Of a stretch of 64,000 nt of DNA, positions 30,933 through 64,000 are shown piece after piece. The notes beneath the pieces are model-generated. The model saw only the letters and a list, made by a program, of their open reading frames with translations. It searched no databases and was not told the DNA's origin. Within the stretch, counting starts at the first letter, position 1. Each line of letters opens with the position of its first letter. Both the position numbers and the translations under genes were made by a program. Source of the stretch: Botryllus schlosseri (lineage: Eukaryota); the NCBI GenBank assembly GCA_051294905.1, contig CM119371.1, positions 40,054,001 to 40,118,000 of the forward strand, written 5' to 3'.

Positions 30933-31172
30933 GGTAGCACGTATAGCATATACACATTTTAGCGATTTTGGTGTCGAATACCTTCTGTTCACCCACTTCT
31001 GGCCATAAGCGAAATCAAAAACCCATGACACGGCTACGTTCTAAGCCATCTTGATTTAAATCCTCATTTCTAAAATTCAAAAGGCATGTTAAAATCATGG
31101 CATATGGCATAAACCTATGAGGACATATTTCATTTCTCCATATCGTTGAGTCTTACTACGCTCTTTGTACAG

Positions 31173-38163: not shown

Positions 38164-41100
38164 TAGGGATGGTGTGAACCTCATGACGTCACGTGACTTC
38201 ATATTGCTAATTCCAACTCTACATTTAAGGGATTTGATATAGTAATGTACACCTAGCCACGACTCGGGCCACAATGCCTCAATGCTGCAGTACATACTGA
38301 CTTATTATACGTCGCCAAGTGTACAAATGGGGAAATCAAATGATATAATAATTTCATAAAATCAATATTTTCCGTCGCTTTGCCAACCATTTTGACGATG
38401 ACTTGCAAGGGATTATAAGCTTACGCCTTATCGGTCTAGGCAGGGCAATGTATACCGCGTCTGAGAGTTGCTACGTTGATATTGAGCAGAGTGCGAATCG
38501 GGTTTTTATACTTGCTACAGATATTACCCCATTAACAAGTTATACCGCAGTAACCAATACCCCAATCACAGGGATTTTGTTATTATGATACAGTAAGTAT
38601 ATGAAATCCAGATGGACTCCCAGACGTCGAGTTACGGGGTGGCGGGGTGGCGCAGCTACCCCATGACACATTTATGGGGTGGCGGCCACCCCATACAATT
38701 AGATCAAACGCCCGCCGTCTGCGATTTTAAATCATCAGCGCTGTCAATCAACGAGTTCGTGATAATAGCGCGTAATTGCCAACTATTTAGCATCAACAGA
38801 TACGCGTGCGAATAATTGATTACGCTAAATCGTCGGCGACGACGAACTATAACGCCCAATAAGTTGTAATCCGTGATTAGTATTCAGACAATCGAAGCAA
38901 CCTCGCTTACGACTTACGACGTCGATTTCGACACGCTTGCGCTGAGAAACACCATCTTCGCTCTCGACCAGAGGAGCGAATGCCCGTTCTCTTCCCCTAA
39001 TTAAATTGTATTTGCGCCAATATTCCTTTAAAAAATACTTCGTTATAATGCGCAAACGATTGTCGCGATGTCAGAGCTGGAAGTTCCAAGTTGGAACCCC
39101 ATTGTGCTGTACGCAAGTTGAGGAATTACTTATTAGATGCGCGCTTTCTCGTTTGCTATCATCTGTAGGCTACTAATTCTTGTCTGCTTCATACAATCGT
39201 ATTCCTTAGGTGTCACTTGTCAGTGTTTCATTTGTTATTAATACTGCGCATTGTGCAGTTCGCGGCGTTGAATTACATTGTCGATATTGATGCAACACGA
39301 GCTTCTCGATGGCGCAAATTCTGAATTTATCCAATTAGTTTGAACGGGAACCTTCTATGTTCCAGTAAACTTCATTGCTGGCCGGAGTCTATCTAGCGCA
39401 ACCTCATCGCGGATCGAATTTCAAACCTTTGGGATATGTATTTCTATTGATGAGGTCACGGCATGCGCCCGTAATTTTACGATCATATTCGACAGGCTGA
39501 TATTAACCAGCGCGTTGTCGGCATTAAAACCCCAGGTGCGTAGCCCTAGCCAGGTAGTTTCTCATTTATAACTAGAAATCCCGTCCTTTTGAAATGTCAA
39601 TTCACGAATTCGTATTATCGATGCTGCGTACTGCAAATTAGCGAGAAACATTTTTATGCGAAATTGGTCATCGATATCTCATGTGCACTATCCACGGCGG
39701 TTTGATTTAGCTCATCCGCATGTAGGCTTGCTACCGTCCGCAGATACACTTTCGCCAAACTGTAACAATCCCTGAGTGCAATATTGTTTGTGTTTATGTA
39801 TCTTTTTCATTAAAACTTATGCCCGCGTCGGAACAAATTGTGCTCGTTGCCATTTCCGAACCTGGGTATCTAGGTATGACTAGCACACCCTGTAACTGTA
39901 ATTATCGCAGGTTAGCGGCATGTCTGCAATTTTGTTATCAGCGCATCTTGCCGGCCGATTGAACAGTCCAATGAAATTATTCACTACTAGGTATTTCACA
40001 CAGCGTACTGAGGCTGATTTCAGCAAACTAACGATCCTTATTAGACGTACGAATTCGACCGCATCGTTAGAAACGAAGATTCGAAACACAATCGCGATTT
40101 GACGATCAAATATACGTTCACCTTCTACAAATTAAGGTGCATTATTTGCATTGATGAGGGCTGCAAGCTGCGTTTGAAGTATTTTGTAGGGATGGTGTGA
40201 ACGTGAGGTTCACGTTCGCGTTCTGTGTGTGAACCTGGGGAAATTTGAGGTTCGCGTTCACAACAGAACGTTGGTAGGTTCTGCACTGTGAACCTTTGTC
40301 ACATATTGCAATTTTCACTTCATTATAACATCTTTGGTTCAAATTAATTGACTTTCAAATGCGAGCATGGAGCATGGAGCTGGCAGCATAAACATTCAAC
40401 ACTAAACGAGCATGCCCTTGACAATCTCAAATATTTACTTGTATTGTAACCAGAGTTTGCTCGAAATATCCAGCTTTCCGTTTGTGCATATTTATTGTCT
40501 CTGTGCTGTGAGCTTGACCCGCAATCACATGATATCAAGAGCGAAATGCACGGTATCTTGTCAGCAAATGATTCTTATTCAACCAATCAATGAGATTGAT
40601 ATCATCTTCTGATGTACAAATCTAGCAGGCGTACGGGGTCAATCTTGAATACATATGTAAACTGTATTATAAAAACCAAATCCGTGCGACCGGGGTGTTG
40701 GCTATACTGCTGTATAACTTGTTAATCGGTAGCAAGTATAGAAACCGATTTTACACTCTGCTCAATATCCATGTGGCAATACTCAGACGCCGAATACACT
40801 GTCCGATCAGGTCGAAATTGTTGGCAAAGCGACGCAAGATACTGATTTTATGAGATTATTATGTCATTTGATTGCCCCAGTTGATACATTTGGCGATGTT
40901 TTAAACGTCAATATGTACTTAAGTACTGAGCTATTATGTGGCCCCGAGTCGTCGCTCGGTATCGTATAAAGTAGATTAATATGGGCAATCACCTAATTGA
41001 AATATCGGGTTGAAATTAGCAATATGACGTCACGTGACGTCATGAGGTTCACGTTCGTGTTCACACAGAACCTTTCAAAAAGGTTCACGTTCACACGAAC

Positions 41101-42140
41101 CTGAACCTTGCAGAGGTTCACACCACCCCTAGTATTTTGTGAACCATTTTTGTGATAAATATTCTCGGAGCGCAAAGTTGAACAGTGTTTAATTGTGTGT
41201 GCCTGCTAGTTATTCCAGTGCCCATAATATTAATCCAATTATGCTTTGCGAACGTAAATCGGGAAATGCAGCAATGTAGTAAAAATCAATGTTTTAAATA
41301 GCAACCAATTGTCGCGATGCGAGCTATGCTCAATACTAAGTAAAAACCCTTTGTGATGGCGGTAAGGGATAAGTACTGATTGGCCGCGCTCGCTTGTAAT
41401 CATAATTCTTGTCTGTCTTTCGTGCTCTAGAATTGTCGCGCCGTGTTACTGCTCAGTCCAGCGACGAATGCCGAGCGCGCGGCAATCAATGACATAATTT
41501 TGCAGTCGCAATAATTTCGCAATGGTCGAGGCCCGCGTAACACTGATAATACGACTTGTTGAATTGCAACTGAATATTAGCGTCAGAATGGTCATTTCCA
41601 AAGGACGGGGTTTTGCATTTCCAAAGGGGTGTCGACACCCGGCTACGCGCCTGTCGCCACCCCATGCAAAAATAAAAGTCGGCGCCTATGGGACCCCGTA
41701 CGCATGCTAGATCTTTTACATCGGACAACGATATCAACTTCATTGGTTGGTTGAATAAGCATCATTCGCTGACTACGTGTAGTGTATTTCGCTCTTGATG
41801 CTGTGTGATTACGGGTCAAGCTCACAGCTGAGTGACACTAAGTATTCACAAACGGAGAGCTGGATATTTCAAGCAAACTTTTGTAGCAAAGAAATTAAAA
41901 TTCTTGAGATTGTCAAGGTGCATGCTTGTGCACTGTTGATTTTTATGGTGTAAGCGCGATGTATAGACTGACCCGCAGTTGAAATGCAATAAATTGTGAC
42001 CAAGGATGTCATAATGACGTGAAAATTGTAATATATCAAAAAGGTTAACAGTGCACAACCGGATATATCAAGGTTCGTTTGTGAACGTGAACCTCTAAAT
42101 TTCAGAGGTTCACATATAGAACGCGAACACGAACCTCACA
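38164..42140 (-). mobile_element. Large outer copy of the TAGGGATGGTGTGAAC family carrying ~3 kb of cargo
   Basis: 38164-38520 is the reverse complement of 40730-41050 and 41690-42140 is the reverse complement of 40200-40640; right terminus lost. Confidence 0.6.
40187..41131 (+). mobile_element. hAT MITE (GTTCAC/GTGAAC subterminal repeats)
   Basis: TIR tagggatggtgtgaac / gttcacaccaccccta, perfect TSD GTATTTTG. Confidence 0.9.
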
Positions 42141-43373
42141 AATCATAAACTGGAAATATTTTTTGCGTTCCGCGCCACTTACTTCCAGCTAGAATTTATT
42201 GTCTCTCTGTTCTTTCGCATATTTGACGTCACGTTAACGTTCATGATCCACACAAAACTGTAGTTGGCCTAATATACGAATACGACATATTCTCTTTATG
42301 GTTAGGGTTCTGGTAAAAATCCTTTTGCCTCTGCTTAAATTCACTTTTAATCGAAGCAATAATTAAAATCATGATTTTACTAATAATAAAACAATAACAG
42401 AACATGGAATAAATGAGGACCATACCAATTAATATAATGGAGCATATCGAATCAACTGAATAATTCGCAGCTCGGAGTCACCATCCCATAGTTCAAGTAG
42501 TTCAATCTCACTGGCAGAAATGGGTCGCCAGAATTGCCGTTAACCTGTTCCCAGATACGTTGAGTAGGGCAGGTGCAGGGTAGCAGGTCTGAAGGTTCTG
42601 AGTCACAAGTCAGTCTCACTTTCATAGTTTTGAGTCGAGTCATTTTCAAATTACCACCGAGTCAAGTCCTAGTCGGAGTCAGGATGTAGGACTGGCATTA
42701 TTTTTTGTGTACATATTTCATTTTTCTAGGTCAATTATACAGTTGTTACTTAAATGATGTGTGATACTCGAATACTCGACTAGACGCCGAATGCGCGATT
42801 CAGAATCGAATCCCTCAGGTAATTGATTTCGATCAGCCCTAATGTTGAGTATAGTCTGAATTATCTATAACACTAGCATATGTAGCATGAGTATCATTGA
42901 TGATATCTGGAGTAGTTTCTGGATGCGAAAAACTATGTCCTGTTTATGTACAAATGCATATGGTTATAAAATAATAAACCACATTCACACAACTCCCCAG
43001 AAAATAAAACAGCCGCAAAAATATATAAAGTCAGCGCGGAGGAATTAAATCAAATATCAAGGGTGAATGCCTGACATAAAATCGACCTAAATTAAATCCA
43101 CCCTATACATTTAATATCGGAGTGGACGGGGCAATATTGAATATTTTCCAAATACAAAACATTTCTTATAGTGCAACACGCTGTAGATTTTTCCATGGTA
43201 ATGTAGGCCTAAGTAGGCCTACATTGCAGAAGGGGGTTCTTAAATCCCGAAAACTTGAATAAAAATTGACATTACGGATGGCCCCCATTTTCCAGCTGGT
43301 GACCTCTCAATTTTTGCACACAAGGGGCTAAAAATGCACATTACCAAACTAAATTTAATATAATATATCTGAC

Positions 43374-44768
43374 CTTTGTACAAATCGTTTTGTGATTTTG
43401 AGAAGACGACGCCTGCCACGAATCGTCGCACAACGGACCATCGTTCTTCATGGAGATGTTCTTCATCGAAGCGAGAGAACTCGTTGAGATTCATTTCTGT
43501 TATAAAAATCGCTGCCAGGTATTCTTGAAGGCTTTGATGACAGAAAAACAATGTGAAATTTCCTTCCATCAAATGTTGGCTTAGTAGGTTGCTCCCCGGA
43601 ACTTTAGTCATCAAATCTTGGACTTCATCTGCCGAGATTCCAAGTTTCTTCAAGTCCCTCTTTTTGAACACGACCCGTCCTTCTCTCATGCCTCGAAATG
43701 CCAATTTCTTCAGTTTGTTGACGATCGATAAAATTTGTTCCCGATTTCGAATGTTTTCGACGCTTTGTAAAGATGATATGATCCTGCAGTATAGTTCTGT
43801 CACCGTTGTTGGAGGAGGTTTATCTGGATCCCTTCCCATCACAACTGCCGTAAGAATCAGAAAAACGGGCACAGAGATTAAATTGATCAATCTTGGTGAC
43901 ATAGTCTCAATTTTCTGCCAGAGGTCCTCACCATTCTCTTGGAGTAAAAATGCAAATAACCTATGCGCGTCATCATACGTAAGGCCATTCAGCGTGATGA
44001 TGGTTTCGGGTCGCGCCATCGCCGGTAACTCTGAAACCTTGAACTCGCGCGAAGCTATGTAGACATTAACGTGACGCAGGATATTCCGGGATAAAATGTT
44101 GTACATGACTGTCCCGCAGCTTGCTTTTTCGTGCTTTTTCATTTTGCGTGGATTTTTCTCAAAATGCCACCTTGCTTGATCAAGTCCGTCGAATATGAGG
44201 AGTGCATCGGATTGATGTTGATCCAGCCATTTGAATGCCTGATCCTCTTCAAATTCACTTTCGAAGAGCCCTCCAAATAAAAATTTGGATGGTTTAATCT
44301 TGCCCTTCACTTCAACGTCTTTCAATTCAATATAATGGACCATTATTTTACCGAAAGAGGGCAGATCTTCAAAATGCTCAATTTCGCAAGATGCGCCGAG
44401 AGCTCTTCGAGCTATTCTGCGTGTAAGTGTGGATTTTCCCGATCCTGCAGATGCCACAATAGCGGTTATACCCACAGTTGCTGATAAGCCTGATTTTTTC
44501 TTTTGCCACATGGATGCCACTACGTCCTCGATCCCGACATCTTTCGCTTCAATCGTGTCTTTCCGAAAAAATCCAACTTCCTGTGTCAGCTGGTTATGGC
44601 CATGGCGACCTTTGTAATAATCATCAACGTCAACGCGACGCATCTGTGGGTAAACTTCAAAGTCAGGTTGCTGAAGCTTTTCATGTCGAAAGTCATCAAG
44701 GATACCAATGGCCGTCACATCCATAGTATTTTCGTTGCAAATTTGTATGAGTTTTGTGTAGCTTATAT
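43374..44768 (-). CDS. NACHT-domain (NLR-like) protein, large internal phase 1-1 exon
   Basis: Walker A ASAGSGKST, Walker B LLIFDGLDQ, sensor IASR, ISVPVFL, winged-helix FCHQSLQEYLAA; acceptor ccttcttttcag at 44769, donor gtcaga at 43373; open throughout. Confidence 0.93.
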
Positions 44769-46121
44769 CTGAAAAGAAGGTAATATTTCAAATCTACTAC
44801 TACGAACCAGAGCCATCCTTTCTTGTATCGCAATTCGACTGCGCATCAACTTTCAAATGCGACTAGCAATGAGGTCCGGCAGATTTGCAATGATTCGAGT
44901 CATAACTTGAGTTAATGTATGTATCGACTCGACTTGTATTCGAGTCATTGCGCAAGAATCGACACATGTTACATGACTTATTCGAGTCAGATATATCAGT
45001 CAGTGTTGGGATGACTCGAGTCACCTTTTTCGTGTGACTTGACTTGACTCTAGTCACTTTGCAATAGTGACTTGACTCGAAGTTTCAAAAATCCGGATTG
45101 AATCGTGACTCGAAGCAAAATTTACGAGTCAATTTCAGATCATTAAGTAATCGATATCGACTAAGTCGCTGTATCTTGTATAAGTTCAAATTGTGCGAAC
45201 GATACGTCGGTGTGATCTGTGAGAGCAGCCAATTACTCAATGGTTGTACGTTTTACCGAGCCTCAGTAGTAGGGTTTGGTCAAATTGTTGCCCGCCAATC
45301 AGAGAGCGCCACGTCATCCTAATTGCCACGCCCATTTTCATCCCCTAAGGGTACATTCATCTGATACGTCATCTGTGCCACATCATCAAGCGCCACGCCT
45401 ATAGTGCCACATTATCCATCCATTGCTATATCATCACTGCATTGATTGCCGCATCTTGATACTTTTCTCAGATATTGTATTATGTGTATTTAGGACTAAT
45501 ATCATCCGTCCATATTTTTTAAACTTGATTTTATGTGTATAAGTTACGGTTTCTGCAGTTTCCACATTTTAGGACTTATGATTGCCGCGTCAAAACTTAC
45601 CTTGGCTAGAATCGACAGATATTGTATTATGTGTATTTAGGACTATGTATTTAAATTCCTACATGAATGCGAAAACTATGATGTCTATGCAAGGCTATAT
45701 TCTCCGGATAATATTATTATTATGAAAATTCTACACATCATCACTAATTACTTAATATAAAATGCGATTTTGAGCGCTGCGACTTGATAATATCAATCCC
45801 TACGCTTCTGATGCATGATTTTTTGTGATAAGGACCTAGGTAACATTCAGAGTCTGCAACGATTGTTTGGATATACATTATAGCAATACCCCACCAAACT
45901 ATAGGCGGTTATATTACTCTATTGGTCAGAGATAACTCATCCGTCCATATTTTTAAATTTGATTTTATGTCTACAAGTTACGGTCTCTGCAGCCTCCACA
46001 TTTTACGACTTATTTTCATTAGACGCAGGCAAGCGATTCTCCAGCTCGGAGCTACGAAAACAAATCACTTGCATGTGCGCGTTCCGAATAGTCTTGTAGA
46101 ATTTTCTAAAGTCGTAACAGC

Positions 46122-46251
46122 TTAGTAGCATATACGCGAATCCCAAGGCGAAAATTATCAAACGAACTATAGCCGCCGGCGTGCGAAGCTTCAGTAGAAT
46201 ATACGCAAATCCCAAGGCGAAAATAATCGAACGAAGTTTAGCCGCAGGCGC
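46122..46251 (+). repeat. Two tandem copies of a ~70-bp unit
   Basis: agtagcatatacgcgaatcccaaggcgaaaa...agccgc repeated. Confidence 0.8.
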
Positions 46252-46627
46252 GAGATTCGCCGGGCTCTAATTATACAAACACTCTCTCTGCCTGTACGCG
46301 AACCCTAGCGTTATAACGACATGGTCTGATTAGCGCATTCTGAAACCATAAATTTATTCAACTTCATTGAGATAGCCATGATTTAAAGATGGTAATCGAG
46401 TGTGACAATAGCACTCGTCAAGGTTATACAAACATAACCTTAAACTAATCTTTACTTCATAACATATAAGGTTATAAAAGTAAGCAGATTTGTATGAAAG
46501 CACGCTACATAGAAGTGAAAGTAGTCTGGAAACATAACTACTTACTGAAAAATCGTTACGTAGAAGTGGGGTTAGTCTACAAATATAACCACTAGCTTAC
46601 TTTGAAATCTCTACTTGTACTTGTATT

Positions 46628-47214
46628 GGAGCAGAATTGTGACCGATACATTAATGATTTTAATACTCTGTATTTTAAATTACCCACACCTTTGAGTCGA
46701 AATGTTCTTAAGTAACTCATGTTTTCAATATCACCTAAACGCAAAGTTCCAAAATTTCCATGTTGATCAAATACCACAAACTTTGCTTGCTTTCAGACTT
46801 AGTAACAAAGCGCATAACAGATTTCACCTAAATAAGTCGGTACTCCGAAAATTTTGTAAATTAGAGCTTTTCGGTGATGGACTTAAGTTCCAATGCACAA
46901 GTGTTCACGTAGGTTCGAATGGAGCAGAATTGTGACCGATGCATTAATGATTTTAATACGTACGTATTTTAAATTACCCACGCCTATGAGTCGAAATTTT
47001 CTTAAGTAACTCATGTTTTCAATATCACCTAAACGCAAAGTTCCAATATTTCCATGTTGATCAAATACCACAAATTTTGCTTGCTTTCAGACTTGGTAAC
47101 AAAGCGCATAACAGAATTCACCTAAAAAAGTCGGTACTCCGAAAATTTTGTAAATTAGAGCTTTTTGGTGATGGACTTAAGTTCCAATGAACAAGTGTTC
47201 ACGTAGGTTCGAAT
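46628..47214 (+). repeat. Tandem duplication of a ~294-bp unit, mirrored from 63468 to 64000
   Basis: ggagcagaattgtgaccgat at 46628 and 46921; both units end gttcacgtaggttcgaat. Confidence 0.9.
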
Positions 47215-50200
47215 CCCACACCCAGAACGTTTTACGAGAATTAACATTTTTAGATTCAAATAGAGCATATTGAGTATTAGAGGCGTTTACACTATGGAGT
47301 TCGTAAGCTTTGCTTGAGTTTTTTAAATTAAGGTAGAAGTAGCCATTTCCGAGTAAGTAAAACGTTAGTATTTTAGGTTCATTTCTGCTTAATACAATAA
47401 TCATCGTGGTGTTGAAGCAGTCCAATATCATTTACACTTGAAAGAATTTGTTGCGTGCAGCTAAAAACCTAATTGAGTACTCTGAAGAAGTACAAGTAGC
47501 ACAGTTTGTGGTGTTTGTATGACATCAAAATTTACGTACTTTTCGCTTACCTTATGTTAATAGTGTTCCTCGTCTATCTACTTTATAAGATTTAGTGTAG
47601 AAATTCAGTAGAAATGTAAACACGCTTGAATATGAGTAAAACTCATTACACTATTACACTACAGCATTACACTATGACTGATTATTTCAATTAGCAAGCA
47701 TAATAGATCATCACCTAATGAATGCAAGGACGAGTTCGCAAGTGGAAAATAAGTCAGATCGCTCGAAATAATAGTCCCGAGTTGCGTAAAGATAATGTTC
47801 TCCCCGTAGCTGAGATCAAGGTTTGCAATTTCGCCTATGGGAATGAGGTATTAGAAAATACCAATTCGAGAGGTTCTCTACTAGATAGTGCCTATAGCTT
47901 TCAATACCACAAACTTTGCTTGCTTTCAGAGCCGGCAACTAAATTCAAGACAGACTTTACGCAAAACTTGCTATTCTGAAAATTTTGTCAAGGTAATGGT
48001 TTAAAAACTTATACTTGAGCACTACGAAATGTACAAGTACTTTATCTTTACACGACGTTTTTTGTAAAATGAATACTAATTTTATTGAAAAAATAAAAAA
48101 GAGCGAAAAATTACATTTTATCCCGAAACGCAACAAGAAAAATCGTATGAATTTGTAAACTACTTATTCATGACATAATAATAATTCTACTTGTACACTT
48201 TTTCACATTTTATAACACTTTGAGTAGTACTTAACAGTTTCAGTTTTAAATAAAATACGGAATATAAACTAATCGAAAAATTCGGTAACCAATTTCGCGT
48301 AGGCTATGCATACAAATGAGGAAAGTTACATCAACGCGTGTTAAACTAGTTGTATCGAGATATCGAATGATTTTTTCCTTCATCAAAACAACTAGAATGT
48401 GTAACTACATTTAAAAAACGTATCTAAATGAGCTCCAGGGCATTGTGATTATGCAGCCTACCAAATTTCATCACACATTTCATGATGGAGCAACTTTAAA
48501 ACTAACGCAGTTCTATAGCAACTTTTACCTAAATCTGTCTTCGGTAGAGTGTAAATATACATAGTCAGCTTTAATAACAGAATTACCATGCTAATATGTG
48601 ACTCCCCACCTTGAAACTTGATACGTAGTTGTAGGACATTGTGATGATGCGGCATACCAAATTTCCTCACGCATTTCATAACGGAGCAACTTTAAAACTA
48701 ACGCGGCTCTACATCGACTTTTTGCCTACAGCTGTTTTGCGGGGAGGGGCGTATAGCACGTACCTATACATAGTCAACTTTAACAACGGAATTACCGTGC
48801 TTAACATTGAATCCCAACTCTAAACTTGATACGTAGTTGTGGGACATTATGGCAATGCACCATGCTAAATTTCATCACACATCCAATGATGGAACACCTT
48901 TAAAACTAACGCAGTCGAATACCGACTTTTACGCATATCTGTTTTGCGTGAACATAGCATATACCTAAACATAGTCAATTTTAATAGCAGAATTGCCGTG
49001 TTAAACATTGAATTCTCACCATGAAAGTTGGTACGCGGTTATAGGAGGCTATAACAATGCGCCATACCAAATCCCATCACACATTTCATGATGGAACAAC
49101 TTTAAAACTAACGCGGCTCTACATCGACTTTTTGCGTACATCTGTTTTGTGGGAGCGTATAGCACGTACCCATACATAGCCAACTTTAATAACGGAATTA
49201 CCATGCTTAACATTGAATCCCAACTCGATACTTGATACGTAGTTGTAGGACATTATGGCAATGCACCATGCTGAATTTCATCACACATCTAATGATGGAA
49301 CACCTTTAACACTAACGCAGTTCTATACCAACTTCGCAGGAATCTGTTTGCGGGAGCGTAGCACGTACCTATGCGTGATCAACTTTAGTGATGGAATTAC
49401 AGATGTAATTAAGTTTCAACACTTTTACAACGATTCGTCTTGCTTCCTATAACATCCCACTCGACGCCCTCTTTATTAGGCTGTAATCTCAGCCTGAGCT
49501 ATGTCTTGAAGCCTACGGGACTCTGCAAATTGTTTCGATTTATTCTCTCCGTTTCAATTCAAGATAAGGAAGCCCATTTCACTCAAAATATCGATGCCTA
49601 CGGTACTCTACAAAATTTTCTGATTAATTCTTCCTATGCTTATTTATCATAAGAAAGATGATTTGACACCTAAAGTACGAAATACTTGTTCGCTTGAGCT
49701 AAGCCGCAGCGCTCGGAGTGGAATTTACTAACGCAGTCGAATACCGACTTTTACGCATATCTGTTTTGCGTGAACATAGCATATACCTATACTTAGTCAA
49801 TTTTAATAGCAGAATCACAATGCTAAACATTGAATTCCCACCTTGACAGTTGATACGCGGTTACAGGACATGACAACAATGCACCATACCAAATTCCGTC
49901 GCACATTTCATGATGGAACAACTTTAAAACTAACGCGGCTCTACACCGACTTTTTGCGTACATATGTTTTGTGGGAGCGTATGATAACACGTACCCATAC
50001 ATAGTCAATTTTAATAACGGAAATACCATGCTTAACATTGAATCCCAACTCGAAACTTGATACGTAGTTGTAGGACATTATGGCAATGCACCATATCAAA
50101 TTTCGTCACACATTTCATGATGTAACACCTTTAAAACTAACGCAGTTCTCTACAGACTTTTGCGTAAATCTGTTTTTCGGTAGCGTAGCACGTACCTATA

Positions 50201-51906
50201 CATAGTAAGCTTCAATAACGGAAGTACCATGCTAATAATCAAATCCCCACCCTGAAACTTTGTACGCATGCAGTTGTAGGACATAATGAAAATACACCAT
50301 ACCAAATTTCGTCAGACATTTCATGATGTAGCACCTTTAAAACCAACGCAGTTCTATACCGACTTTTGACTAAATCTATTTGTCCGTAGCGTAGCACGTA
50401 CCTATACAGTATACATAGTCAACTTTAATAACGGAATTACCATGTTGATAATTGACTCCCCACCTTGAAACTCGGTACACTGTAAAAAATAAAGGTGGAT
50501 TTTAGGGTGGAATTAGGGAGGAAATATTGTTTCCACTCATGATCAAGGGAGGGTGACTATAATACACCTCCTGAAAGGTGATATCCTCCTTTCCACCCCT
50601 GTTTGACAGTGGATGATGAATCCGCCTATACGCGTGAGGTGCGCATACGGGGTTGTTGTCGCGAAATTTAATGCGTGCGCCCAAGGTGGCTGGTTAAACA
50701 CACATATGAAGGCCGGAAGGACATTGGTATGTAATATGTGACCCTCATATCGGTGCACAGAGACAGCGAGATAATAGTTATAAGCCAACCGCGCAACCGT
50801 GCACATAATCATTGAATGAAAATCTCTATCTTCATTGCGGGGAGCAGATATTTGTTCAATGTTCAGTTTGAAAGTGTTGGAATCAACAATTATTCAATCG
50901 CCCGTTGGTCGTCCGCTGTACTAGTAGTTCGTCCGTTACTATATAGGTTACTACGTATGTTAGTTATATGCCGTTACCGTATATAGTTAGAAGTTTGTTG
51001 TTGCCATTGTTACGGTGCGAGTTACTAGGTCTGTGATTTTTACTGTGACGTCAGAATGATACAGACGGTGAATGAAATCGTCAGACTGATGCCTGCTTCT
51101 GATTGGTTGTTGTATCACTAAAAAGTTCGGGTGGTAAAAAGATGGCGCCGACAACACAGTTGTCTTCGACAAATTTTGTAGTAAGAGAAGCGAGTTTTTG
51201 TGAGTCCATGGAGTATACGAGAGGGAGATAGTTGGCTTTGGATTATGGATTGGCGTTGTGATGCTTGTATTAGAAATGCGTTATCGTGTTGGACATACTT
51301 GCCCAGCCTGTCAAGTCTTCGGCTGTGAAATTGGATCGTGCAATCACATTGCCACGGCATGCAACAGCTACAGATGCCATTTAGATTCTCATCACATGAC
51401 GGTGCAGGCCAGATACCAGCTATTCATGAGCATTTGCTAATCAATCTGTCTGTTTAGGTAGCCATGAAATTGTTAGTTAAGCTATCAAATTATTGTCCGC
51501 TGATTACTGTCGACGACGCTTCTGAGATAAGAAGAGAGGTTTCGGAAATACACAAAGGTGAACTCCATGATCGTGACTTCAAAATCCAGTGTTATGACAG
51601 AAGATTAGGCCAGTATCTAGATCTGGAGTATGCGGATGTCGGAGATGATGACGTCTTCAAAGAGGACATTGCAATATGTCAAGTAATTGTAAGTAAGCAC
51701 ACACTGAATTCACATCATTTACTTGCTGCTAGCTGAACATTTTTTAGTAGTCCAATTCTAGTGCGATAGTCGTTACATTTCTATTGTCGAATTTATCCAG
51801 CGTATAATCCACTGGTAGCCGTGGCCCGTCGGTATACAGTTTTGTAGGACCGAATTCTGCAGTACGCTTCTTGTTTTGTAATGCCACCCCTGGTCTGCTC
51901 ATATAC

Positions 51907-52278
51907 TAGGCTTACCATACGTCCTCTTTTGAGAGGATTTGTCCTCTTTTTTGACTTTTTTGAAAGTGTCCTCGGAGGACGCCCTTTTGTCCTCTTTTTT
52001 GAGATTTTGTCCTCTTTTTTGAAAATTTAGGTCAGATTTAGAGCAAATTGCGAGTGATATGCCGCAAATTAGCACAGAAGTGAAGCTCCGGGGGGTATTT
52101 CGGAGTGAAAAACGGTGATTTGAGCTCTGAGCGAAAAGGTGATTTTTTTTTTTTTTTAGTCATCCACCTGGAAATGTGGAGAGAAAAACGGTATTTTGAG
52201 AATTCTACTCCGGTTTTGCAAGTTTTAAATTTCTGAAAAAGTGTCCTCTTTTTAGATTTCCAAAATATGTTAAGCCTA
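51907..52278 (+). mobile_element. hAT MITE in intron 1 of the accessory gene
   Basis: TIR taggcttaccata / tatgttaagccta, TSD tcatatac / ccatatac. Confidence 0.88.
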
Positions 52279-52909
52279 CCATATACCTGCTTTTGATTGC
52301 GTTTGCGTAATATTGATAGTATATTGACTCTTGCTGGTGCGAGACAACATTGTTGTGTTTAAGAACTACGATTGGTTGTGTGTCGCACGTCCAACAGCTT
52401 TCAAAAATGCTTCATGAAGACTAAGTTTCGGTGTCACTGTACTGAATGTCCTATCAAGTTAATTTGAATTATTCCACGCCCGCAAAAGTAAAGTATATGC
52501 ATATTGCATATTGTATATCCACACAAGTGCATGCCATCTCACAGTTTGAAAAGCAATGCTGCAAAGCCAATTTTGGTTCCGTCAGTATTCCTTGCTCCCA
52601 TAAGTACACATCTCTTTACCCAGGTAAATATTGCATTGCCGAGAAAATGAGTGATCCATTGGATGTGCTGTCGGAAATCGCCCTCAATTCGACGCCAGGT
52701 ACTCATGACAGAAACGACAGTTCTGGTGAGTTATACTAAATTTTGAACTGAGCTGTTGGTTTTAACAGAACTTACGATCTCGTCAATTATGCAATCAAGT
52801 AATTAATTGTGATCCATTATTTGCCATATGTGCTCATTAGTCATGTTCAATTGTACAGCAATCAACATCCGGACTTGCCATGAGTTTTTGTGCCGTTTTT
52901 GATCTATGC

Positions 52910-53112
52910 CAGGGGGATCAACCTGTAGCCTTAGAAGCCGATATGAATAAATAGGTGAGCTCGGAGTATAAAATAAATGGACATAATCGACAATTTAATG
53001 CGGATATTTGGCTTCAAGTTGGTGCATTACGACTGTGCGCTGGAATGCGGCCGCATGCTGTTTTAATATTAGGAAATCAGGCCGTGAATAGCAAAAAGGT
53101 TGGTCAACCCTG
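52910..53112. mobile_element. Small hAT MITE in intron 2 of the accessory gene
   Basis: cagggggatcaacct / aggttggtcaaccctg, TSD atctatgc / atctacac. Confidence 0.65.
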
Positions 53113-56100
53113 ATCTACACCAATGCCTCCATAGCAAACAACACACTTATGCTCTGTAAGTTAGTTGTATTTTGTATTACAGAATCTGACGATCTGGACT
53201 GGATGGTTACATTGGTTAGTCTACCTGCCATTTTCCTCAAAAATAAACTTCTTCCTGTCTGATCAGGTACGAATATTTATCGATATTATCAAGCAGTTGT
53301 TTGATTTGAAGTATACATAATTCGGGACTGTCAGAACGATTCGACAGTCCTAGTCGAACTTTGCATTTTATAGCAACTATGTAATTGTAGTTTAAACACA
53401 TTTTTTCAACGGTATACATCCCATTGCTATTAAATCGTTTTTAGTCTGGCAGCCTTTCATAACTAATCATTTGGCTGGGAATTCGACAGCAGAGCAGTCA
53501 TATTTTTTACAGCTGCAACCGATGAAATAAGATCAGATAAGGGCATTTGAATATTTACTCCTTCTCAAACGCCCTGCTGTTGACAAGCCCGTGCACCCTT
53601 TTCATCGCAGTCGCAGTGAAGCAGTGGTGTACAAATGGCGTTTCGCAAAGCAATTTCTGGGTGTCCACACACTCAATTGGCAACATGAATGATAACCTAA
53701 TTTTTAGGCCCAGATTCAGATCATCACGCCGTATATTTAGGCGATTACAAGTATATAAGTGGTGATCTGCAAGCTATGTTAGTGTTATATACTTCAAGTG
53801 GACATCTTGAGTAGTACAGCTTTTTCAAAAAGTAGAACTAAACGCATAATTTTAGCTGTATTTCGAAGGTGGCCACTTTTCAACTCGATAGATGCATATT
53901 CGCAACTTACTCAATATGAGTAATAACATGACAGTTGCAGTAAAACAGAGTTACAAATTTAAAAACTTTTGAGGGTGTCCAGCCCGCAGGACTGGACGGT
54001 CAAAAAGAGGTCGGCATGGTGACGATAAAAAGTTGGTGTCAGCGTGAGCTGCTGACTAACACCTGGTTGTCAAGTCCATCTAATGTTCATATACCCGAGC
54101 CAGAGGCGTTAAACGCAGTTAACAAGGCTATACTGAAGTAGAAGTAGGAAGACATAATTTTACTCGGTACGAGTTATGTTGTAAACCAGCTACAAGTAGA
54201 AGTAGTTTGACAGTCTTTTGATACTACTCAAGTGAGCATGTATTTTTGAATAGTTATAATACACTGCCAATATGTATGTTTGACCTGTTTCACAATACCA
54301 AACCTTTCTTCAGATGCCCAGATCAGCCTACCTTACAATTTGTTCTGCTGTGGAAAAGAAGAAGTGGGCCATCTACTTTGATGGGGAGACAGTCCGAGAT
54401 ATCAACAGCTTCCATGAGGAATTTGCAGTGATGCTTTCAGTCTACTGGATATTCGACATACAGTTTTCGACAAACATCAGAAATTCCCTCACTTTCATGT
54501 CAGTTCTAGCACACTGTTGAAAGAGATGAGTTCTGCTGTTCGCACCAAACTTGGTAAAATCTGGGACTAATTTGAAAATAAAGTTTTGGAATAAAGGCGA
54601 TGTTGTGATTTATGTCAACGTGGATTATGAAGATTTAATTTAGATGTTGTGCGCATCGAAGTCGTTTGACGAAGATATCCGGATAGGACGAGGTGGTATC
54701 TGGATAGGCTGATGAGGTGGTTTACCGATAGCATAGGGGAGGAAAATTTTCCACCTAAAATAGGTGGGGGAGCCCACCACCCTTTACGAGTGGAGAAAAT
54801 ACCACCTCCTTTGGGTGATTTTTGAAACACCTCTGTAAGGTGGCCACAGTTTTTACAGTGTACGCAGTTGTAACACAATGCACCATGTCAAATTCGGTTA
54901 CGCATTTCATGATTGAACAACTTTAAAACTAGCGCAGTTCGACACCGACTTTTGCGGGAGAGTAGCATGTACCTATGCATAATCAACTTTAATAACGAAA
55001 TTACCATGCTAAACATTGAATGCGCAACTTGAAAATTGGTTCACAGGTGTAGGACATTATGACAATGGAACATATCAAATTTCATCACACATTTCATGAT
55101 GGAACACCTTTAAAACTAACGCAGTTCTATACCGATTTCACGTGAATCTGTTTGCGGGAGCGTAGCACGTACCTATGCGTAGTCAACTTTAATGACGGAA
55201 TTACAGATGTAATTAAGTTTCAACACTTTTACAATGATTCGTCTTGCTTCCTATAACATCCCACTCGAAGCCCTCGTTATTAGGTTATGATCTCAGCCTG
55301 AGCTATGTCTTGAAGCCTACGGGAATCTGCAAATTGTTTCGATTTATTCTGTCAGTTTCAATTTAAGATAAGGGAACCCATTTCACTCAATGTATCGATG
55401 CCTACGGTACTCTACAAAATTTTCTGATTAATTCTCCCTATGTTAATTTATCATAAGAAAGATGATTTGAATCCTAAAGTACGAAATACTTGTTCGCTTG
55501 AGCTGAGCCGCAGCGCTTGGAGTGGAATTTTACGAGGTATGTGGACTCATTTCGAAGGGCTCTATGCCATAGGAGCATACTTTACGCTCCAATTTGACTC
55601 CCATACATTCCATATAGTTACTAACAAAACCATTGAGTACCAGCCTGGAAATTTCGCGTAGCACTAGATGGCATGTATACAATTTCATGACATCCGACAG
55701 TACGACGGAGACTATCAAAATATCGACAGAAGCCCTCTATTCTTTTCTGAAATAATCAAGGTTTTATCAGGACTTCCCTTCATATAAACTCCAGCAGAAT
55801 CACTAATAACCTCTCAAGTTTACTCAATTTACTCTAATTTGACACTCGAGTACTTAATCCCTATTTTCCGCAAGTATGATACAGGCTATCGCTCGATACT
55901 CAACGATTCGTAATTTTGCTGGAATACAAGTACAATTAGGGATTAAAAAGTAACTAATATAGGTGGTTATGTTTGTAGATTATTTACACTTCTATACTTA
56001 CCGGTTTTTCAGGAGAAACTACCTACTTTTAGGACTTTATATTTTAAAGTAGCTTGAGGTTACGTTTGTATCACTTTGACAAGTGCTATCATCAAAAACT

Positions 56101-59100
56101 GCTTTTGCTAAACTCTTACACTTTCACTAAACTTCTACACTGAATCTTGTAAAGTAGATAGAAGAGGAAAACTACTATCATAAGGTAAGTGAGAAGCACG
56201 CAAATTTTGATCGCATACAAATGCCACAAACCGCGCTAACTTTCAGAGTTGTTAAGTATAGAAGTAGTCGTACTTCTTGAGAATACCCAAGTAGGTTTTT
56301 TGCCTACATGCACCAAATACTCTCAAGTCCTTATTGGAGTACATCAACTTCATGATAGCTACAGTATAAAACAGAAATAGACCTAGAGTACTAACGTTTT
56401 ACTTACTCGGAAATGACTGCTTCTACCTTATTTCAAAGGATTCCTCGTTCGGAGCGAAATTTTATGGGGTTTTGGATAATATCCAAGATGTAGGCTCACT
56501 TTGAAGGGTACTTCGTAAAACTTAAATATTGCGCAGTGAGAGTTCGCAAATTCTCGAAGTATTTTTGTTATTTTTATTGCGATAAGTCATTCTGCGGCGC
56601 GAAAATGCGTCGTCGGATATAGAGGAAACTAGCAGCACTCATCAAGACCACTGAAAACAGTACATTTCAACATTTAGTAGCAGTAAATTTCTAGTAAAGT
56701 ACAAGAAGTGATGATTTCCGAGAGAGTTAAAAAGTAAGTATTGAAGGTATAGTTTGCTCTAAAACCGTAAAACTCTGAAATAGAAGTAGATGCAGTGTAG
56801 ATAGTTAATCACTTCATTCAGTATAGCGCAATCAGGCCAAACCTATACTTGAGTACTCCAAAGTGTACAAGTACTGTGCTATGTACTCCCTCCACGTAAA
56901 AAGTGACTAGAGTTTAGAGTACTTTATCGGTACTTGACAGTTTCAGTTTTAGATAAAATTCAGTTAAGACTTTAAATTTTAAAGTAGTTTGAGCTTACGT
57001 TTGTATCACCTTGACAAGTAACATTATCAGACATGAAAATGATATTATAACCTAATACAGAAGTGAACACACGTCAATGTGCTTCGGAATTCACGAGAAA
57101 TTGCTTACTAAGAGAAGTATATTCTTGTATACACAATAGTGGAGAGAATCTTTAAAATGTAGTAAGCAGGCCGATGGGTATTCGTTGAGTTGTATAAGCA
57201 TAAAAAAACATTCCCGCGCGCTCCTAAACCTAACACTTCCTAACCCACCACCACCTAATACTAAGACGCGCGCGGGAATGTTTTTTTATGCTTATACAAC
57301 TCAACGAATACCCATCGGCCTGCTTACTACATTTTAAAGATTCTCTCCACTATTGTGTATACAAGAATATACTTCTCTTAGTAAGCAATTTCTCGTGAAT
57401 TCCGAAGCACATTGACGTGTGTTCACTTCTGTATTAGGTTATAATATCATTTTCATGTCTGATAATGTTACTTGTCAAGGTGATACAAACGTAAGCTCAA
57501 ACTACTTTAAAATTTAAAGTCTTAACTGAATTTTATCTAAAACTGAAACTGTCAAGTACCGATAAAGTACTCTAAACTCTAGTCACTTTTTACGTGGAGG
57601 GAGTACATAGCACAGTACTTGTACACTTTGGAGTACTCAAGTATAGGTTTGGCCTGATTGCGCTATACTGAATGAAGTGATTAACTATCTACACTGCATC
57701 TACTTCTATTTCAGAGTTTTACGGTTTTAGAGCAAACTATACCTTCAATACTTACTTTTTAACTCTCTCGGAAATCATCACTTCTTGTACTTTACTAGAA
57801 ATTTACTGCTACTAAATGTTGAAATGTACTGTTTTCAGTGGTCTTGATGAGTGCTGCTAGTTTCCTCTATATCCGACGACGCATTTTCGCGCCGCAGAAT
57901 GACTTATCGCAATAAAAATAACAAAAATACTTCGAGAATTTGCGAACTCTCACTGCGCAATATTTAAGTTTTACGAAGTACCCTTCAAAGTGAGCCTACA
58001 TCTTGGATATTATCCAAAACCCCATAAAATTTCGCTCCGAACGAGGAATCCTTTGAAATAAGGTAGAAGCAGTCATTTCCGAGTAAGTAAAACGTTAGTA
58101 CTCTAGGTCTATTTCTGTTTTATACTGTAGCTATCATGAAGTTGATGTACTCCAATAAGGACTTGAGAGTATTTGGTGCATGTAGGCAAAAAACCTACTT
58201 GGGTATTCTCAAGAAGTACGACTACTTCTATACTTAACAACTCTGAAAGTTAGCGCGGTTTGTGGCATTTGTATGCGATCAAAATTTGCGTGCTTCTCAC
58301 TTACCTTATGATAGTAGTTTTCCTCTTCTATCTACTTTACAAGATTCAGTGTAGAAGTTTAGTGAAAGTGTAAGAGTTTAGCAAAAGCAGTTTTTGATGA
58401 TAGCACTTGTCAAAGTGATACAAACGTAACCTCAAGCTACTTTAAAATATAAAGTCCTAAAAGTAGGTAGTTTCTCCTGAAAAACCGGTAAGTATAGAAG
58501 TGTAAATAATCTACAAACATAACCACCTATATTAGTTACTTTTTAATCCCTAATTGTACTTGTATTCCAGCAAAATTACGAATCGTTGAGTATCGAGCGA
58601 TAGCCTGTATCATACTTGCGGAAAATAGGGATTAAGTACTCGAGTGTCAAATTAGAGTAAATTGAGTAAACTTGAGAGGTTATTAGTGATTCTGCTGGAG
58701 TTTATATGAAGGGAAGTCCTGATAAAACCTTGATTATTTCAGAAAAGAATAGAGGGCTTCTGTCGATATTTTGATAGTCTCCGTCGTACTGTCGGATGTC
58801 ATGAAATTGTATACATGCCATCTAGTGCTACGCGAAATTTCCAGGCTGGTACTCAATGGTTCTGTTAGTAACTATATGGAATGTATGGGAGTCAAATTGG
58901 AGCGTAAAGTATGCTCCTATGGCATAGAGCCCTTCGAAATGAGTCCACATACCTCGTAAAATTCCACTCCAAGCGCTGCGGCTCAGCTCAAGCGAACAAG
59001 TATTTCGTACTTTAGGATTCAAATCATCTTTCTTATGATAAATTAACATAGGGAGAATTAATCAGAAAATTTTGTAGAGTACCGTAGGCATCGATACATT

Positions 59101-59279
59101 GAGTGAAATGGGTTCCCTTATCTTAAATTGAAACTGACAGAATAAATCGAAACAATTTGCAGATTCCCGTAGGCTTCAAGACATAGCTCAGGCTGAGATC
59201 ATAACCTAATAACGAGGGCTTCGAGTGGGATGTTATAGGAAGCAAGACGAATCATTGTAAAAGTGTTGAAACTTAATTA

Positions 59280-62236
59280 CATCTGTAATTCCGTCATTAA
59301 AGTTGACTACGCATAGGTACGTGCTACGCTCCCGCAAACAGATTCACGTGAAATCGGTATAGAACTGCGTTAGTTTTAAAGGTGTTCCATCATGAAATGT
59401 GTGATGAAATTTGATATGTTCCATTGTCATAATGTCCTACACCTGTGAACCAATTTTCAAGTTGCGCATTCAATGTTTAGCATGGTAATTTCGTTATTAA
59501 AGTTGATTATGCATAGGTACATGCTACTCTCCCGCAAAAGTCGGTGTCGAACTGCGCTAGTTTTAAAGTTGTTCAATCATGAAATGCGTAACCGAATTTG
59601 ACATGGTGCATTGTGTTACAACTGCGTACCGAGTTTCAAGGTGGGGAGTCAATTATCAACATGGTAATTCCGTTATTAAAGTTGACTATGTATACTGTAT
59701 AGGTACGTGCTACGCTACGGACAAATAGATTTAGTCAAAAGTCGGTATAGAACTGCGTTGGTTTTAAAGGTGCTACATCATGAAATGTCTGACGAAATTT
59801 GGTATGGTGTATTTTCATTATGTCCTACAACTGCATGCGTACAAAGTTTCAGGGTGGGGATTTGATTATTAGCATGGTACTTCCGTTATTGAAGCTTACT
59901 ATGTATAGGTACGTGCTACGCTACCGAAAAACAGATTTACGCAAAAGTCTGTAGAGAACTGCGTTAGTTTTAAAGGTGTTACATCATGAAATGTGTGACG
60001 AAATTTGATATGGTGCATTGCCATAATGTCCTACAACTACGTATCAAGTTTCGAGTTGGGATTCAATGTTAAGCATGGTATTTCCGTTATTAAAATTGAC
60101 TATGTATGGGTACGTGTTATCATACGCTCCCACAAAACATATGTACGCAAAAAGTCGGTGTAGAGCCGCGTTAGTTTTAAAGTTGTTCCATCATGAAATG
60201 TGCGACGGAATTTGGTATGGTGCATTGTTGTCATGTCCTGTAACCGCGTATCAACTGTCAAGGTGGGAATTCAATGTTTAGCATTGTGATTCTGCTATTA
60301 AAATTGACTAAGTATAGGTATATGCTATGTTCACGCAAAACAGATATGCGTAAAAGTCGGTATTCGACTGCGTTAGTAAATTCCACTCCGAGCGCTGCGG
60401 CTTAGCTCAAGCGAACAAGTATTTCGTACTTTAGGTGTCAAATCATCTTTCTTATGATAAATAAGCATAGGAAGAATTAATCAGAAAATTTTGTAGAGTA
60501 CCGTAGGCATCGATATTTTGAGTGAAATGGGCTTCCTTATCTTGAATTGAAACGGAGAGAATAAATCGAAACAATTTGCAGAGTCCCGTAGGCTTCAAGA
60601 CATAGCTCAGGCTGAGATTACAGCCTAATAAAGAGGGCGTCGAGTGGGATGTTATAGGAAGCAAGACGAATCGTTGTAAAAGTGTTGAAACTTAATTACA
60701 TCTGTAATTCCATCACTAAAGTTGATCACGCATAGGTACGTGCTACGCTCCCGCAAACAGATTCCTGCGAAGTTGGTATAGAACTGCGTTAGTGTTAAAG
60801 GTGTTCCATCATGAAATGTGTGATGAAATTTGATATGTTCCATTATCATACTGTCCTACACCTGTGAACCAATCTTCAAGTTGCGCATTCAATGTTTAGC
60901 TCGGTAATTCCGTTATTAAAGTTGAGTATGCATCGGTACGTGCTACGCTCCAGCTAAAGTCGGTATGGAACTGCGTTAGTTTTAAAGTTGTTCAATCATG
61001 AAATGCGTAACAAAATTTGACATGGTGCATTGTCATAATGTCTTACAACTGCGTACCGAGTTTCAAGGTGGGGAGTCGATTATTAACATGCTAATTCCGT
61101 TATTGAAGTTGACTATGTATAGGTACGTGCTACGCTACGGAAAAACAGATTTAGCCAAAAGTTTGTATAGAACTGCGTTGGTTTTAAAGGTGTTACATCA
61201 TGAAATGTCTGACGAAATTTGGTATGATGCATTTTTATTATGTCCTACAACTGCGTACCAACGTTCAAGGTGAGAATTTAATGTTTAGCATGCTAATTCT
61301 GTTATTAAAATTGACTATGTATGGGTATATGCTATGTTCACGAAAAACAGATATGCGTAAAAGTCGGTATTCGACTGCGATAGTTTCAAAGGTGTTCCAT
61401 CATTAGATGTGTGATGAAATTCAGCATGGTGCATTGCCATAATGTCCTACAACTACGTATCAAGTATCGAGTTGGGATTCAATGTTAAGCATGGTAATTC
61501 CGTTATTAAAGTTGGCTATGTATGGGTACGTGCTATACGCTCCCACAAAACAGATGTACGCAAAAAGTCGATGTAGAGCCGCGTTAGTTTTAAAGTTGTT
61601 CCATCATGAAATGTGTGATGGGATTTGGTATGGCGCATTGTTATAGCCTCCTATAACCGCGTACCAACTTTCATGGTGAGAATTCAATGTTTAACACGGC
61701 AATTCTGCTATTAAAATTGACTATGTTTAGGTATATGCTATGTTCACGCAAAACAGATATGCGTAAAAGTCGGTATTCGACTGCGTTAGTTTTAAAGGTG
61801 TTCCATCATTGGATGTGTGATGAAATTTAGCATGGTGCATTGCCATAATGTCCCACAACTACGTATCAAGTTTAGAGTTGGGATTCAATGTTAAGCACGG
61901 TAATTCCGTTGTTAAAGTTGACTATGTATAGGTACGTGCTATACGCCCCTCCCCGCAAAACAGCTGTAGGCAAAAAGTCGATGTAGAGCCGCGTTAGTTT
62001 TAAAGTTGCTCCGTTATGAAATGCGTGAGGAAATTTGGTATGCCGCATCATCACAATGTCCTACAACTACGTATCAAGTTTCAAGGTGGGGAGTCACATA
62101 TTAGCATGGTAATTCTGTTATTAAAGCTGACTATGTATATTTACACTCTACCGAAGACAGATTTAGGTAAAAGTTGCTATAGAACTGCGTTAGTTTTAAA
62201 GTTGCTCCATCATGAAATGTGTGATGAAATTTGGTA
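59280..62236 (-). repeat. ~148-bp satellite in the right arm (mirror image, four extra units, no transposon)
   Basis: Reverse complement of 48460-55210 plus a 591-bp segment at ~60812-61402. Confidence 0.9.
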
Positions 62237-64000
62237 GGCTGCATAATCACAATGCCCTGGAGCTCATTTAGATACGTTTTTTAAATGTAGTTACACATTC
62301 TAGTTGTTTTGATGAAGGAAAAAATCATTCGATATCTCGATACAACTAGTTTAACACGCGTTGATGTAACTTTCCTCATTTGTATGCATAGCCTACGCGA
62401 AATTGGTTACCGAATTTTTCGATTAGTTTATATTCCGTATTTTATTTAAAACTGAAACTGTTAAGTACTACTCAAAGTGTTATAAAATGTGAAAAAGTGT
62501 ACAAGTAGAATTATTATTATGTCATGAATAAGTAGTTTACAAATTCATACGATTTTTCTTGTTGCGTTTCGGGATAAAATGTAATTTTTCGCTCTTTTTT
62601 ATTTTTTCAATAAAATTAGTATTCATTTTACAAAAAACGTCGTGTAAAGATAAAGTACTTGTACATTTCGTAGTGCTCAAGTATAAGTTTTTAAACCACT
62701 ACCTTGACAAAATTTTCAGAATAGCAAGTTTTGCGTAAAGTCTGTCTTGAATTTAGTTGCCGGCTCTGAAAGCAAGCAAAGTTTGTGGTATTGAAAGCTA
62801 TAGGCACTATCTAGTAGAGAACCTCTCGAATTGGTATTTTCTAATACCTCATTCCCATAGGCGAAATTGCAAACCTTGATCTCAGCTACGGGGAGAACAT
62901 TATCTTTACGCAACTCGGGACTATTATTTCGAGCGATCTGACTTATTTTCCACTTGCGAACTCGTCCTTGCATTCATTAGGTGATGATCTATTATGCTTG
63001 CTAATTGAAATAATCAATCATAGTGTAATGCTTATGTGAGTTTTACTCATATTCAAGCGTGTTTACATTTCTACTGAATTTCTACACTAAATCTTATAAA
63101 GTAGATAGACGAGGAACACTATTAACATAAGGTAAGCGAAAAGTACGTAAATTTTGATGTCATACAAACACCACAAACTGTGCTACTTGTACTTCTTCAG
63201 AGTACTCAATTAGGTTTTTAGCTGCACGCAACAAATTCTTTCAAGTGTAAATGATATTGGACTGCTTCAACACCACGATGATTATTGTATTAAGCAGAAA
63301 TGAACCTAAAATACTAACGTTTTACTTACTCGGAAATGGCTACTTCTACCTTAATTTAAAAAACTCAAGCAAAGCTTACGAACTCCATAGTGTAAACGCC
63401 TCTAATACTCAATATGCTCTATTTGAATCTAAAAATGTTAATTCTCGTAAAACGTACTGGGTGTGGGATTCGAACCTACGTGAACACTTGTTCATTGGAA
63501 CTTAAGTCCATCACCAAAAAGCTCTAATTTACAAAATTTTCGGAGTACCGACTTTTTTAGGTGAATTCTGTTATGCGCTTTGTTACCAAGTCTGAAAGCA
63601 AGCAAAATTTGTGGTATTTGATCAACATGGAAATATTGGAACTTTGCGTTTAGGTGATATTGAAAACATGAGTTACTTAAGAAAATTTCGACTCATAGGC
63701 GTGGGTAATTTAAAATACGTACGTATTAAAATCATTAATGCATCGGTCACAATTCTGCTCCATTCGAACCTACGTGAACACTTGTGCATTGGAACTTAAG
63801 TCCATCACCGAAAAGCTCTAATTTACAAAATTTTCGGAGTACCGACTTATTTAGGTGAAATCTGTTATGCGCTTTGTTACTAAGTCTGAAAGCAAGCAAA
63901 GTTTGTGGTATTTGATCAACATGGAAATTTTGGAACTTTGCGTTTAGGTGATATTGAAAACATGAGTTACTTAAGAACATTTCGACTCATAGGTGTGGGT

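Follow-up and report, generated by a model that had tools for sequence, protein, structure and literature searches.

A giant palindrome in the genome of Botryllus schlosseri: a probable gene-less satellite of Polintons/Mavericks

Polintons, fold-back elements and snap-back genomes

Transposons of the Polinton/Maverick type belong to a size class of 15-20 kb and carry terminal inverted repeats (TIRs), with reported lengths of 100-1,000 bp (PMC4196379), 584 bp in Anolis (PMC3014272) and 744 bp in C. elegans (10.1101/2024.01.15.575659). The commonest end among vertebrate Mavericks is 5'-(AGT)2//(ACT)2-3' with 6-bp duplications (PMC8097293). In the Polinton replication model (as described in PMC4196379), an extrachromosomal single strand adopts a racket-like structure that is copied by a protein-primed polymerase. 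Here we describe an element in 64,000 nucleotides of Botryllus schlosseri DNA (GenBank assembly GCA_051294905.1, contig CM119371.1, positions 40,054,001 to 40,118,000 of the forward strand; the whole stretch is called the window, and positions count from its first letter). The element shares with Polintons/Mavericks an inferred 5'-(AGT)2 end and, as predicted, TIRs and the size class. It differs from them in having no recognisable core genes and in its inverted repeat, which would be the entire element, with a predicted ~8.1 kb per arm.

Two further groups of transposons are close in design. Butterfly Polintons include forms with ~2-kb gene-bearing TIRs and mobile forms that lack polB (bioRxiv 10.1101/2025.02.07.637071); expanded inverted repeats, mobility without a polymerase of their own and other transposons as passengers are likenesses to the present element, but they retain core genes and have a middle that is long and unique, whereas the present element is non-coding with a middle of 46 nt. 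Fold-back elements such as Drosophila FB and Tetris (PMC4079207) have modular arms that are non-coding and contain tandem repeats of ~200 bp, as found here. The arms described here are, in contrast, far larger, there is scarcely any middle domain, and the putative end is of the Maverick rather than the Mutator type.

Snap-back or copy-back defective viral genomes are self-complementary, gene-less and helper-dependent, with two identical origins. The present element differs from them in being chromosomal, inherited and multi-copy, and is known from integrated DNA only. A full-text literature search, with most subscription papers, Repbase reports and supplements outside its reach, returned no report of a gene-less, whole-palindrome Polinton dependant; the accessible text of a review of giant transposons (PMC6431247) does not contain 'palindrom', and a test of the folded-strand replication model was not found in the accessible parts of the cited Polinton papers.

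The element is a palindrome present in many copies, it has no recognisable genes, its arms evolve in lock-step, and a CACTA-type element was later inserted into one of them. It is highly probable that we are dealing with a real, multi-copy, gene-less giant palindrome. Our explanation, which we consider probable, is a satellite of Polintons/Mavericks, gene-less, ~16 kb long and palindromic throughout, that was later hit by a CACTA element and is likely to replicate by folding back. A more specific version, to which we give tentative credence a little short of even, is a snap-back satellite, carried in the germ line, of an endogenous DNA virus: a self-complementary, gene-less 16-kb genome that would be copied as a giant hairpin by the protein-primed Polinton polymerase, with its arms re-templated in each cycle, and inserted by the Polinton integrase, having reached ~100 chromosomal sites in spite of its 46-nt spacer.

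A multi-copy palindrome with arms in lock-step

By self-BLAST and global alignment of the two arms, 46,682-57,221 and 57,268-64,000 lie in mirror image about a 46-nt spacer. The aligned parts differ at 8 positions in 6,142 nt; three of these belong to a 13-nt indel, leaving 5 isolated single-nucleotide polymorphisms (SNPs; 0.08%), and three gaps separate four gap-free blocks (Table 1), one of 4,385 nt present in the left arm only, one of 591 nt in the right arm only and one of 13 nt in the left arm only. The near-perfect palindrome with its tiny spacer, proposed in an initial annotation made from the letters alone, is thus borne out, and the few SNPs, the TNK/TNR and KTF/KTY differences between mirrored frames and all three gaps were recovered as it described them. 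Its extent needs rewording: the mirror is visible from 46,682 to 64,000, and 46,682 is not the start of the arm but the point at which the mirror leaves the window. Inverted arms are therefore seen over 6.1 kb, and symmetry to the termini is predicted only.

The arm is itself a patchwork. Blocks of a 202-bp satellite are 75-80% identical to one another, and older direct and inverted duplications range from 71 to 93%. In the non-satellite part of the arm, k-mer enrichment brought out AGTA-rich words only and no strict FB-type short repeat. The 591-nt piece might have been a fresh duplication in the right arm, which we reject, its best paralogue being just 86% identical; this low identity and the 16-nt microhomology at its bounds indicate that the left arm lost it. 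The 13-nt insertion, built of repeats of a neighbouring 8-mer, resembles an end-joining scar, and at SNP 46,692 the left arm has the derived state, judged from the tandem paralogue.

Recognisable genes are lacking throughout. Outside the CACTA element, the longest stop-to-stop frame of the left arm has 93 codons. None of 44 arm frames of at least 45 codons passed the Pfam cut-off, in a scan of the arms outside the 591-nt right-only piece, none of the 32 arm frames given to PHROGs matched, and Rfam had no match in 45,000-64,000. The Polinton core genes (pPolB, integrase, ATPase, protease, capsid) were thus not found among these 44 and 32 frames, and because they were sought and not found we class the element not as a Polinton but as a probable dependant of one. 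No arm frame had a Pfam match above the cut-off to a Mutator-type transposase or its remnant. Small or spliced genes of unknown families could remain in the arms. A sub-threshold Pfam match to AGMP_C in a satellite frame (E 0.009) was rejected.

Four public runs were compared with 43,000-57,297 of the window: X1, which is possibly the source sample, and X16, X6 and X17, which come from other samples and studies. All four were available as assembled contigs, not reads. Arm bins are far deeper than the flank with its NLR-like gene in all four, and part of the right arm is present in 21 of the 24 runs listed; marine and other metagenome runs with small word shares play no part in the comparison. 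Bin depth in X16 is ~18,700-105,000 for the arm and 800-1,700 for the NLR gene family, while bins of the CACTA element outside the MITE (miniature inverted-repeat transposable element) nested in it lie mostly at 2,100-3,200, with one of up to 10,500. Long X6 contigs have depths of 28.6 and 31.5 in the arm versus 5.0-7.6 in the CACTA element. Most CACTA contigs of X16 have depths of 1,794-1,937 versus ~49-50 for flank-type contigs, which are ~10% diverged and whose single-copy depth is an assumption. These figures suggest ~37 CACTA copies, ~180 arms and roughly a hundred elements, all as orders of magnitude only, since depth is not copy number. Contigs from other samples also join distant parts of 46,000-57,000 (e.g. 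48,169 to 46,471, 55,074 to 56,233 and 48,022 to 56,268), which suggests that some members of the family have their modules in another order or carry deletions. In runs labelled as three other organisms (B, C and E), 0.21-0.35 of the arm's words are present, with C and E covering 30 of 30 bins at low depth.

The initial annotation had offered a very large fold-back, non-autonomous element and a recent inverted duplication (through priming by fold-back or through sister fusion) as alternatives; the end near 45,265 and a comparison of the arms with their family had no place in it. The first is supported by arms that are multi-copy in four runs and gene-less; the second is unlikely. A single inverted duplication of chromosomal DNA rich in repeats, started by the small palindrome at the apex, would fit the GC-clamped short hairpin and telomere-like motifs found there, as well as the patchwork nature of the arm. 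It is nonetheless very improbable, given that the 8-kb arm is multi-copy along its whole length, with similar depth, and behaves as one repeat family up to a discrete end that carries a Maverick-type motif and lies ~540 nt short of the NLR frame, and that no host gene is duplicated.

We inspected the best-supported 40 of 824 differences between the left arm and the contigs; 21 of them fall where both arms are visible, and 20 of these 21 are present in both arms, with one (47,226) in the left arm only. Compared with long contigs from other samples, the window shows 20 differences in 384 nt, 14 in 314 nt (a stretch that overlaps the previous one) and 9 in 241 nt; over these stretches the two arms differ from each other at 1, 1 and 0 positions. 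Farther out, the contigs differ from the window at 13 positions in 422, 4 in 229 and 2 in 268. The present copy is thus ~1-5% away from the main variants of the family, versus 0.08% between its own arms, from which we conclude that the arms evolve in lock-step. One arm is copied onto the other by some process.

This copying might also take place in the chromosome. Were the element of the same class, its arms could have become identical once inserted, through gene conversion between them or repair of a cruciform. A CACTA copy that stands 0.4-0.8% from its family contigs, next to arms 0.08% apart, fits such local homogenization after insertion, and some shared variants are very shallow in X1 (~20-36, where the flank contig has 14), which would suit variants confined to the locus. 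On the other hand, the differences of the CACTA copy may mark a subfamily (at 53,775, ~430 X1 depth units carry the base of the window), and the large one-arm changes persist un-erased. The X1 depth remainders of private alleles, which run from 0 to ~900, are too noisy to tell one haplotype from two, include contig ends and are unreliable here. We consider conversion in the chromosome unlikely as the source of arm identity.

The stem at the apex folds with z = -14.9, and none of 200 shuffles folds equally well; the spacer holds the sole cluster of CCTAA/TTAGG in the window (at least 3 within 46 nt; chance ~3e-7). The minus strand of the spacer has seven GG runs, and a two-tier G-quadruplex might form on it. 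Contigs that overrun an end of the compared stretch, which end not being distinguished, number 37 in X1, 6 in X16, 3 in X17 and 0 in X6, and may span the spacer.

The initial annotation took the one-arm insertion with its clean target-site duplication as an argument against a simple read fold-back artefact. That much holds: a pure fold-back read is excluded by an insertion in one arm that faces an empty site in the other. Joins between haplotypes or sister copies at the locus are a separate matter. A real family could be represented by a mis-assembled locus, in which the right arm comes from the other haplotype or a sister copy through a path flip near the apex. The evidence at the locus does come from assembled contigs; shared non-family variants would also be expected if the right arm were the left arm of the other allele, and all four changes that could be polarised without bias lie on one arm. 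However, a flip presupposes a genuine long palindrome, the right arm has a clean CACTA empty site, and the spacer is motif-rich genomic sequence, unlike what we take to be the sequencing hairpin adapter. Moreover, a poly-A run that lies 20 nt from the spacer varies in length among contigs of X1, X16 and X17. We therefore consider mis-assembly improbable, slightly more so than conversion in the chromosome.

Putative left end, predicted size and a proposed folded-strand cycle

The outer boundary of the repeat is marked by contigs. A zero-difference X1 contig of depth 14.2 covers 45,116-45,292 and stops there, 28 nt past 45,265, and with 31-letter words this stop would place the start of the repeat at ~45,263-45,268. 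Arm-level depth reaches outward towards this point, in an X6 contig at inner-arm depth (45,763-46,184) and an X17 contig (45,405-45,702). Of the Polinton/Maverick left-end motifs 5'-(AGT)2 and (AG)3, the first coincides with the boundary, as AGTAGT; this word occurs 28 times on the plus strand of the window, which gives a chance of ~0.2% per 4-nt slot. The first 206 nt of the arm contain GCCAC five times (0.2 expected), CCACGCC and ACGTCA twice each and CCAAT once. We infer that the left end lies at 45,265, where AGTAGT would serve as a Polinton-type origin and integrase site. If the arms are colinear, the right end is predicted near 65,417, the ancestral arm at ~8,150 nt and the element at ~16.3 kb, or 20.2 kb with the insertion. 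Just left of the element, at 45,013-45,137, lies a short, very abundant repeat that contains GACTCGAGTC motifs and has loose contig ends at both borders.

The nature of this end also bears on another kind of parentage. Long, modular arms without open reading frames but with internal tandem repeats are the architecture of fold-back transposons (Tetris, PMC4079207), and the element could be a non-autonomous, Mutator/FB-like member of that group, moved by cut and paste by a DDE transposase, with arms matched by gene conversion or hairpin repair. Yet the inferred end opens with the Maverick motif, and the Tetris types have 8-10-bp duplications and a middle domain where the present element has 46 nt. 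Such an origin is unlikely, if the least so of the alternatives considered.

For a satellite of Polintons, a cycle can be proposed in which the arms would also be reset to identity. A displaced single strand would fold into one long hairpin, the open end of which would form a duplex origin for the protein-primed polymerase of the helper; an element that is an inverted repeat throughout would require only the polymerase and the integrase of that helper. Copying of the hairpin alone does not equalise the arms. For that, either mismatches would have to be repaired while the strand is folded, or one arm would have to be synthesised anew with priming at the GC-clamped apex, and arm identity could in that way be reset over such cycles. 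The integrase of the helper would then insert the duplex and give the 6-bp duplication. After insertion the arms would diverge, the present copy having acquired the 5 SNPs, the scar, the satellite deletion and the CACTA insertion.

If this is true, a family that consists of two origins joined as a hairpin, and whose arms change together, would offer a natural read-out for the folded-strand model of Polinton replication, and that model would become testable from population and long-read data alone. Long palindromes with tiny spacers are usually held to be unstable. Here, an animal genome would be seen to tolerate ~100 near-perfect palindromes of 16 kb with tiny spacers; these could seed rearrangements, and assemblers easily collapse or discard them.

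Several points weigh against the proposed satellite. The putative link to a helper comes from the end motif; six letters alone are weak evidence, only the left end falls within the window, and AGTAGT was sought with Polinton-type ends already in mind. The published Polinton TIRs cited here are far shorter (0.1-2 kb). The evidence at the apex consists of contigs rather than spanning reads, the lock-step count of 21 was drawn from the best 40 of 824 differences, and gene conversion in the chromosome could also give lock-step arms. Finally, the left arm carries the derived state of all four bias-free polarised changes (the CACTA insertion, the deletion, the scar and SNP 46,692; two-sided chance 0.125), and this slight, non-significant asymmetry is not predicted by the satellite model.

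Scanning with patterns from the terminus and apex turned up one 20-nt match among metagenome contigs (L001) and 38 15-nt matches among viral contigs, which were set aside, with no BLAST match to the window. Two 20-nt patterns had no match in the viral contigs, and one pattern match in a bacterial metagenome-assembled genome (L040) was dismissed as chance.

The inserted element and other features of the window

Table 1. Positions of the palindrome, its parts and its insertions in the window
Feature	Position	Strand	Remarks
Candidate left half of 6-bp target-site duplication	45,259-45,264	+	AGCCTC; from sequence only; partner would fall outside the window
Left arm	45,265-57,221	+	11,957 nt counting the CACTA insertion; patchwork of old direct/inverted duplications, 71-95% identity
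Inferred left terminus	45,265-45,470	+	Opens AGTAGT, then a cluster of short repeated motifs
Tandem duplication	46,627-47,214	+	294 bp, 95% identity; mirrored in right arm
Left-only insertion, 13 nt	47,646-47,658	+	Templated repeats of neighbouring 8-mer
Satellite arrays, ~202 bp	48,437-55,530	+	Each block closes with a ~330-bp tail; split by the CACTA element
CMC/EnSpm (CACTA)-type element	50,478-54,860	+	CACTG...CAGTG ends; TA duplication at 50,476-77 and 54,861-62; left arm only
Very abundant MITE inside the CACTA element	51,906-52,278		13-bp TIRs; hAT-like, its 8-bp duplication having one mismatch; contig ends loose at 51,907 and 52,278
Spacer behind CG-alternating clamp	57,222-57,267		46 nt; four CCTAA (telomere-like TTAGG on minus strand)
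Right arm	57,268-64,000	-	Exits the window; predicted end near 65,417 if colinear
Three satellite units, right arm only	60,797-61,387	-	591 nt; 16-nt microhomology at bounding units
Gap-free block 1 (global alignment)	57,221-54,864 vs 57,268-59,625		2,358 nt, 1 mismatch
Gap-free block 2 (global alignment)	50,478-49,308 vs 59,626-60,796		1,171 nt, 0 mismatches
Gap-free block 3	49,307-47,659 vs 61,388-63,036		1,649 nt, 5 mismatches, 3 adjoining the 13-nt indel
Gap-free block 4 (global alignment)	47,645-46,682 vs 63,037-64,000		964 nt, 2 mismatches

The one-arm insertion in the present copy dates the divergence of the arms. The right arm preserves the empty site, with a single TA, and the inserted element has contigs of its own, one of which begins exactly at 50,478. 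Its termini are of the form CACT(A/G) and are flanked by a duplication within the 2-3 bp range, features that we take to be those of the CMC/EnSpm group. None of the 34 frames (of 39) submitted to Pfam passed a cut-off, that for a CACTA transposase included, and we read the insertion as a non-autonomous CMC/EnSpm element from its sequence. A sub-threshold Pfam match to a holin in it (E 0.007) was rejected. Exon-like frames occur on its plus strand between 51,458 and 54,520, and the last of them resembles unnamed eukaryotic protein clusters (0.96). A homologue search with the last frame found nothing; another frame, with an Atlas score of 0.87, is a lead only. The exon-like frames point to a possible accessory gene that is spliced.

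The palindrome's putative left end is situated ~540 nt upstream of the ATG of the NLR-like frame in the flank, which occupies 43,240-44,787 on the minus strand and encodes 494 aa with NACHT and NOD2 winged-helix domains (Pfam). Its best named relative, the only named one of 12 matches, is from the ascidian Clavelina lepadiformis (29%), in keeping with animal DNA from an ascidian-like host.

Other repeats are found elsewhere in the window. An AT-rich tandem array of 4.1 kb, with a 36/71-bp unit, occupies 10,866-15,046. Many smaller palindromic MITE-like elements and older inverted repeats lie at 1,222-1,789, 22,752-23,375, 27,132-27,408, 31,166-31,809 and 38,174-42,139, and the one at 27,132-27,408 consists of two 133-nt arms that are 99% complementary and enclose 11 nt.

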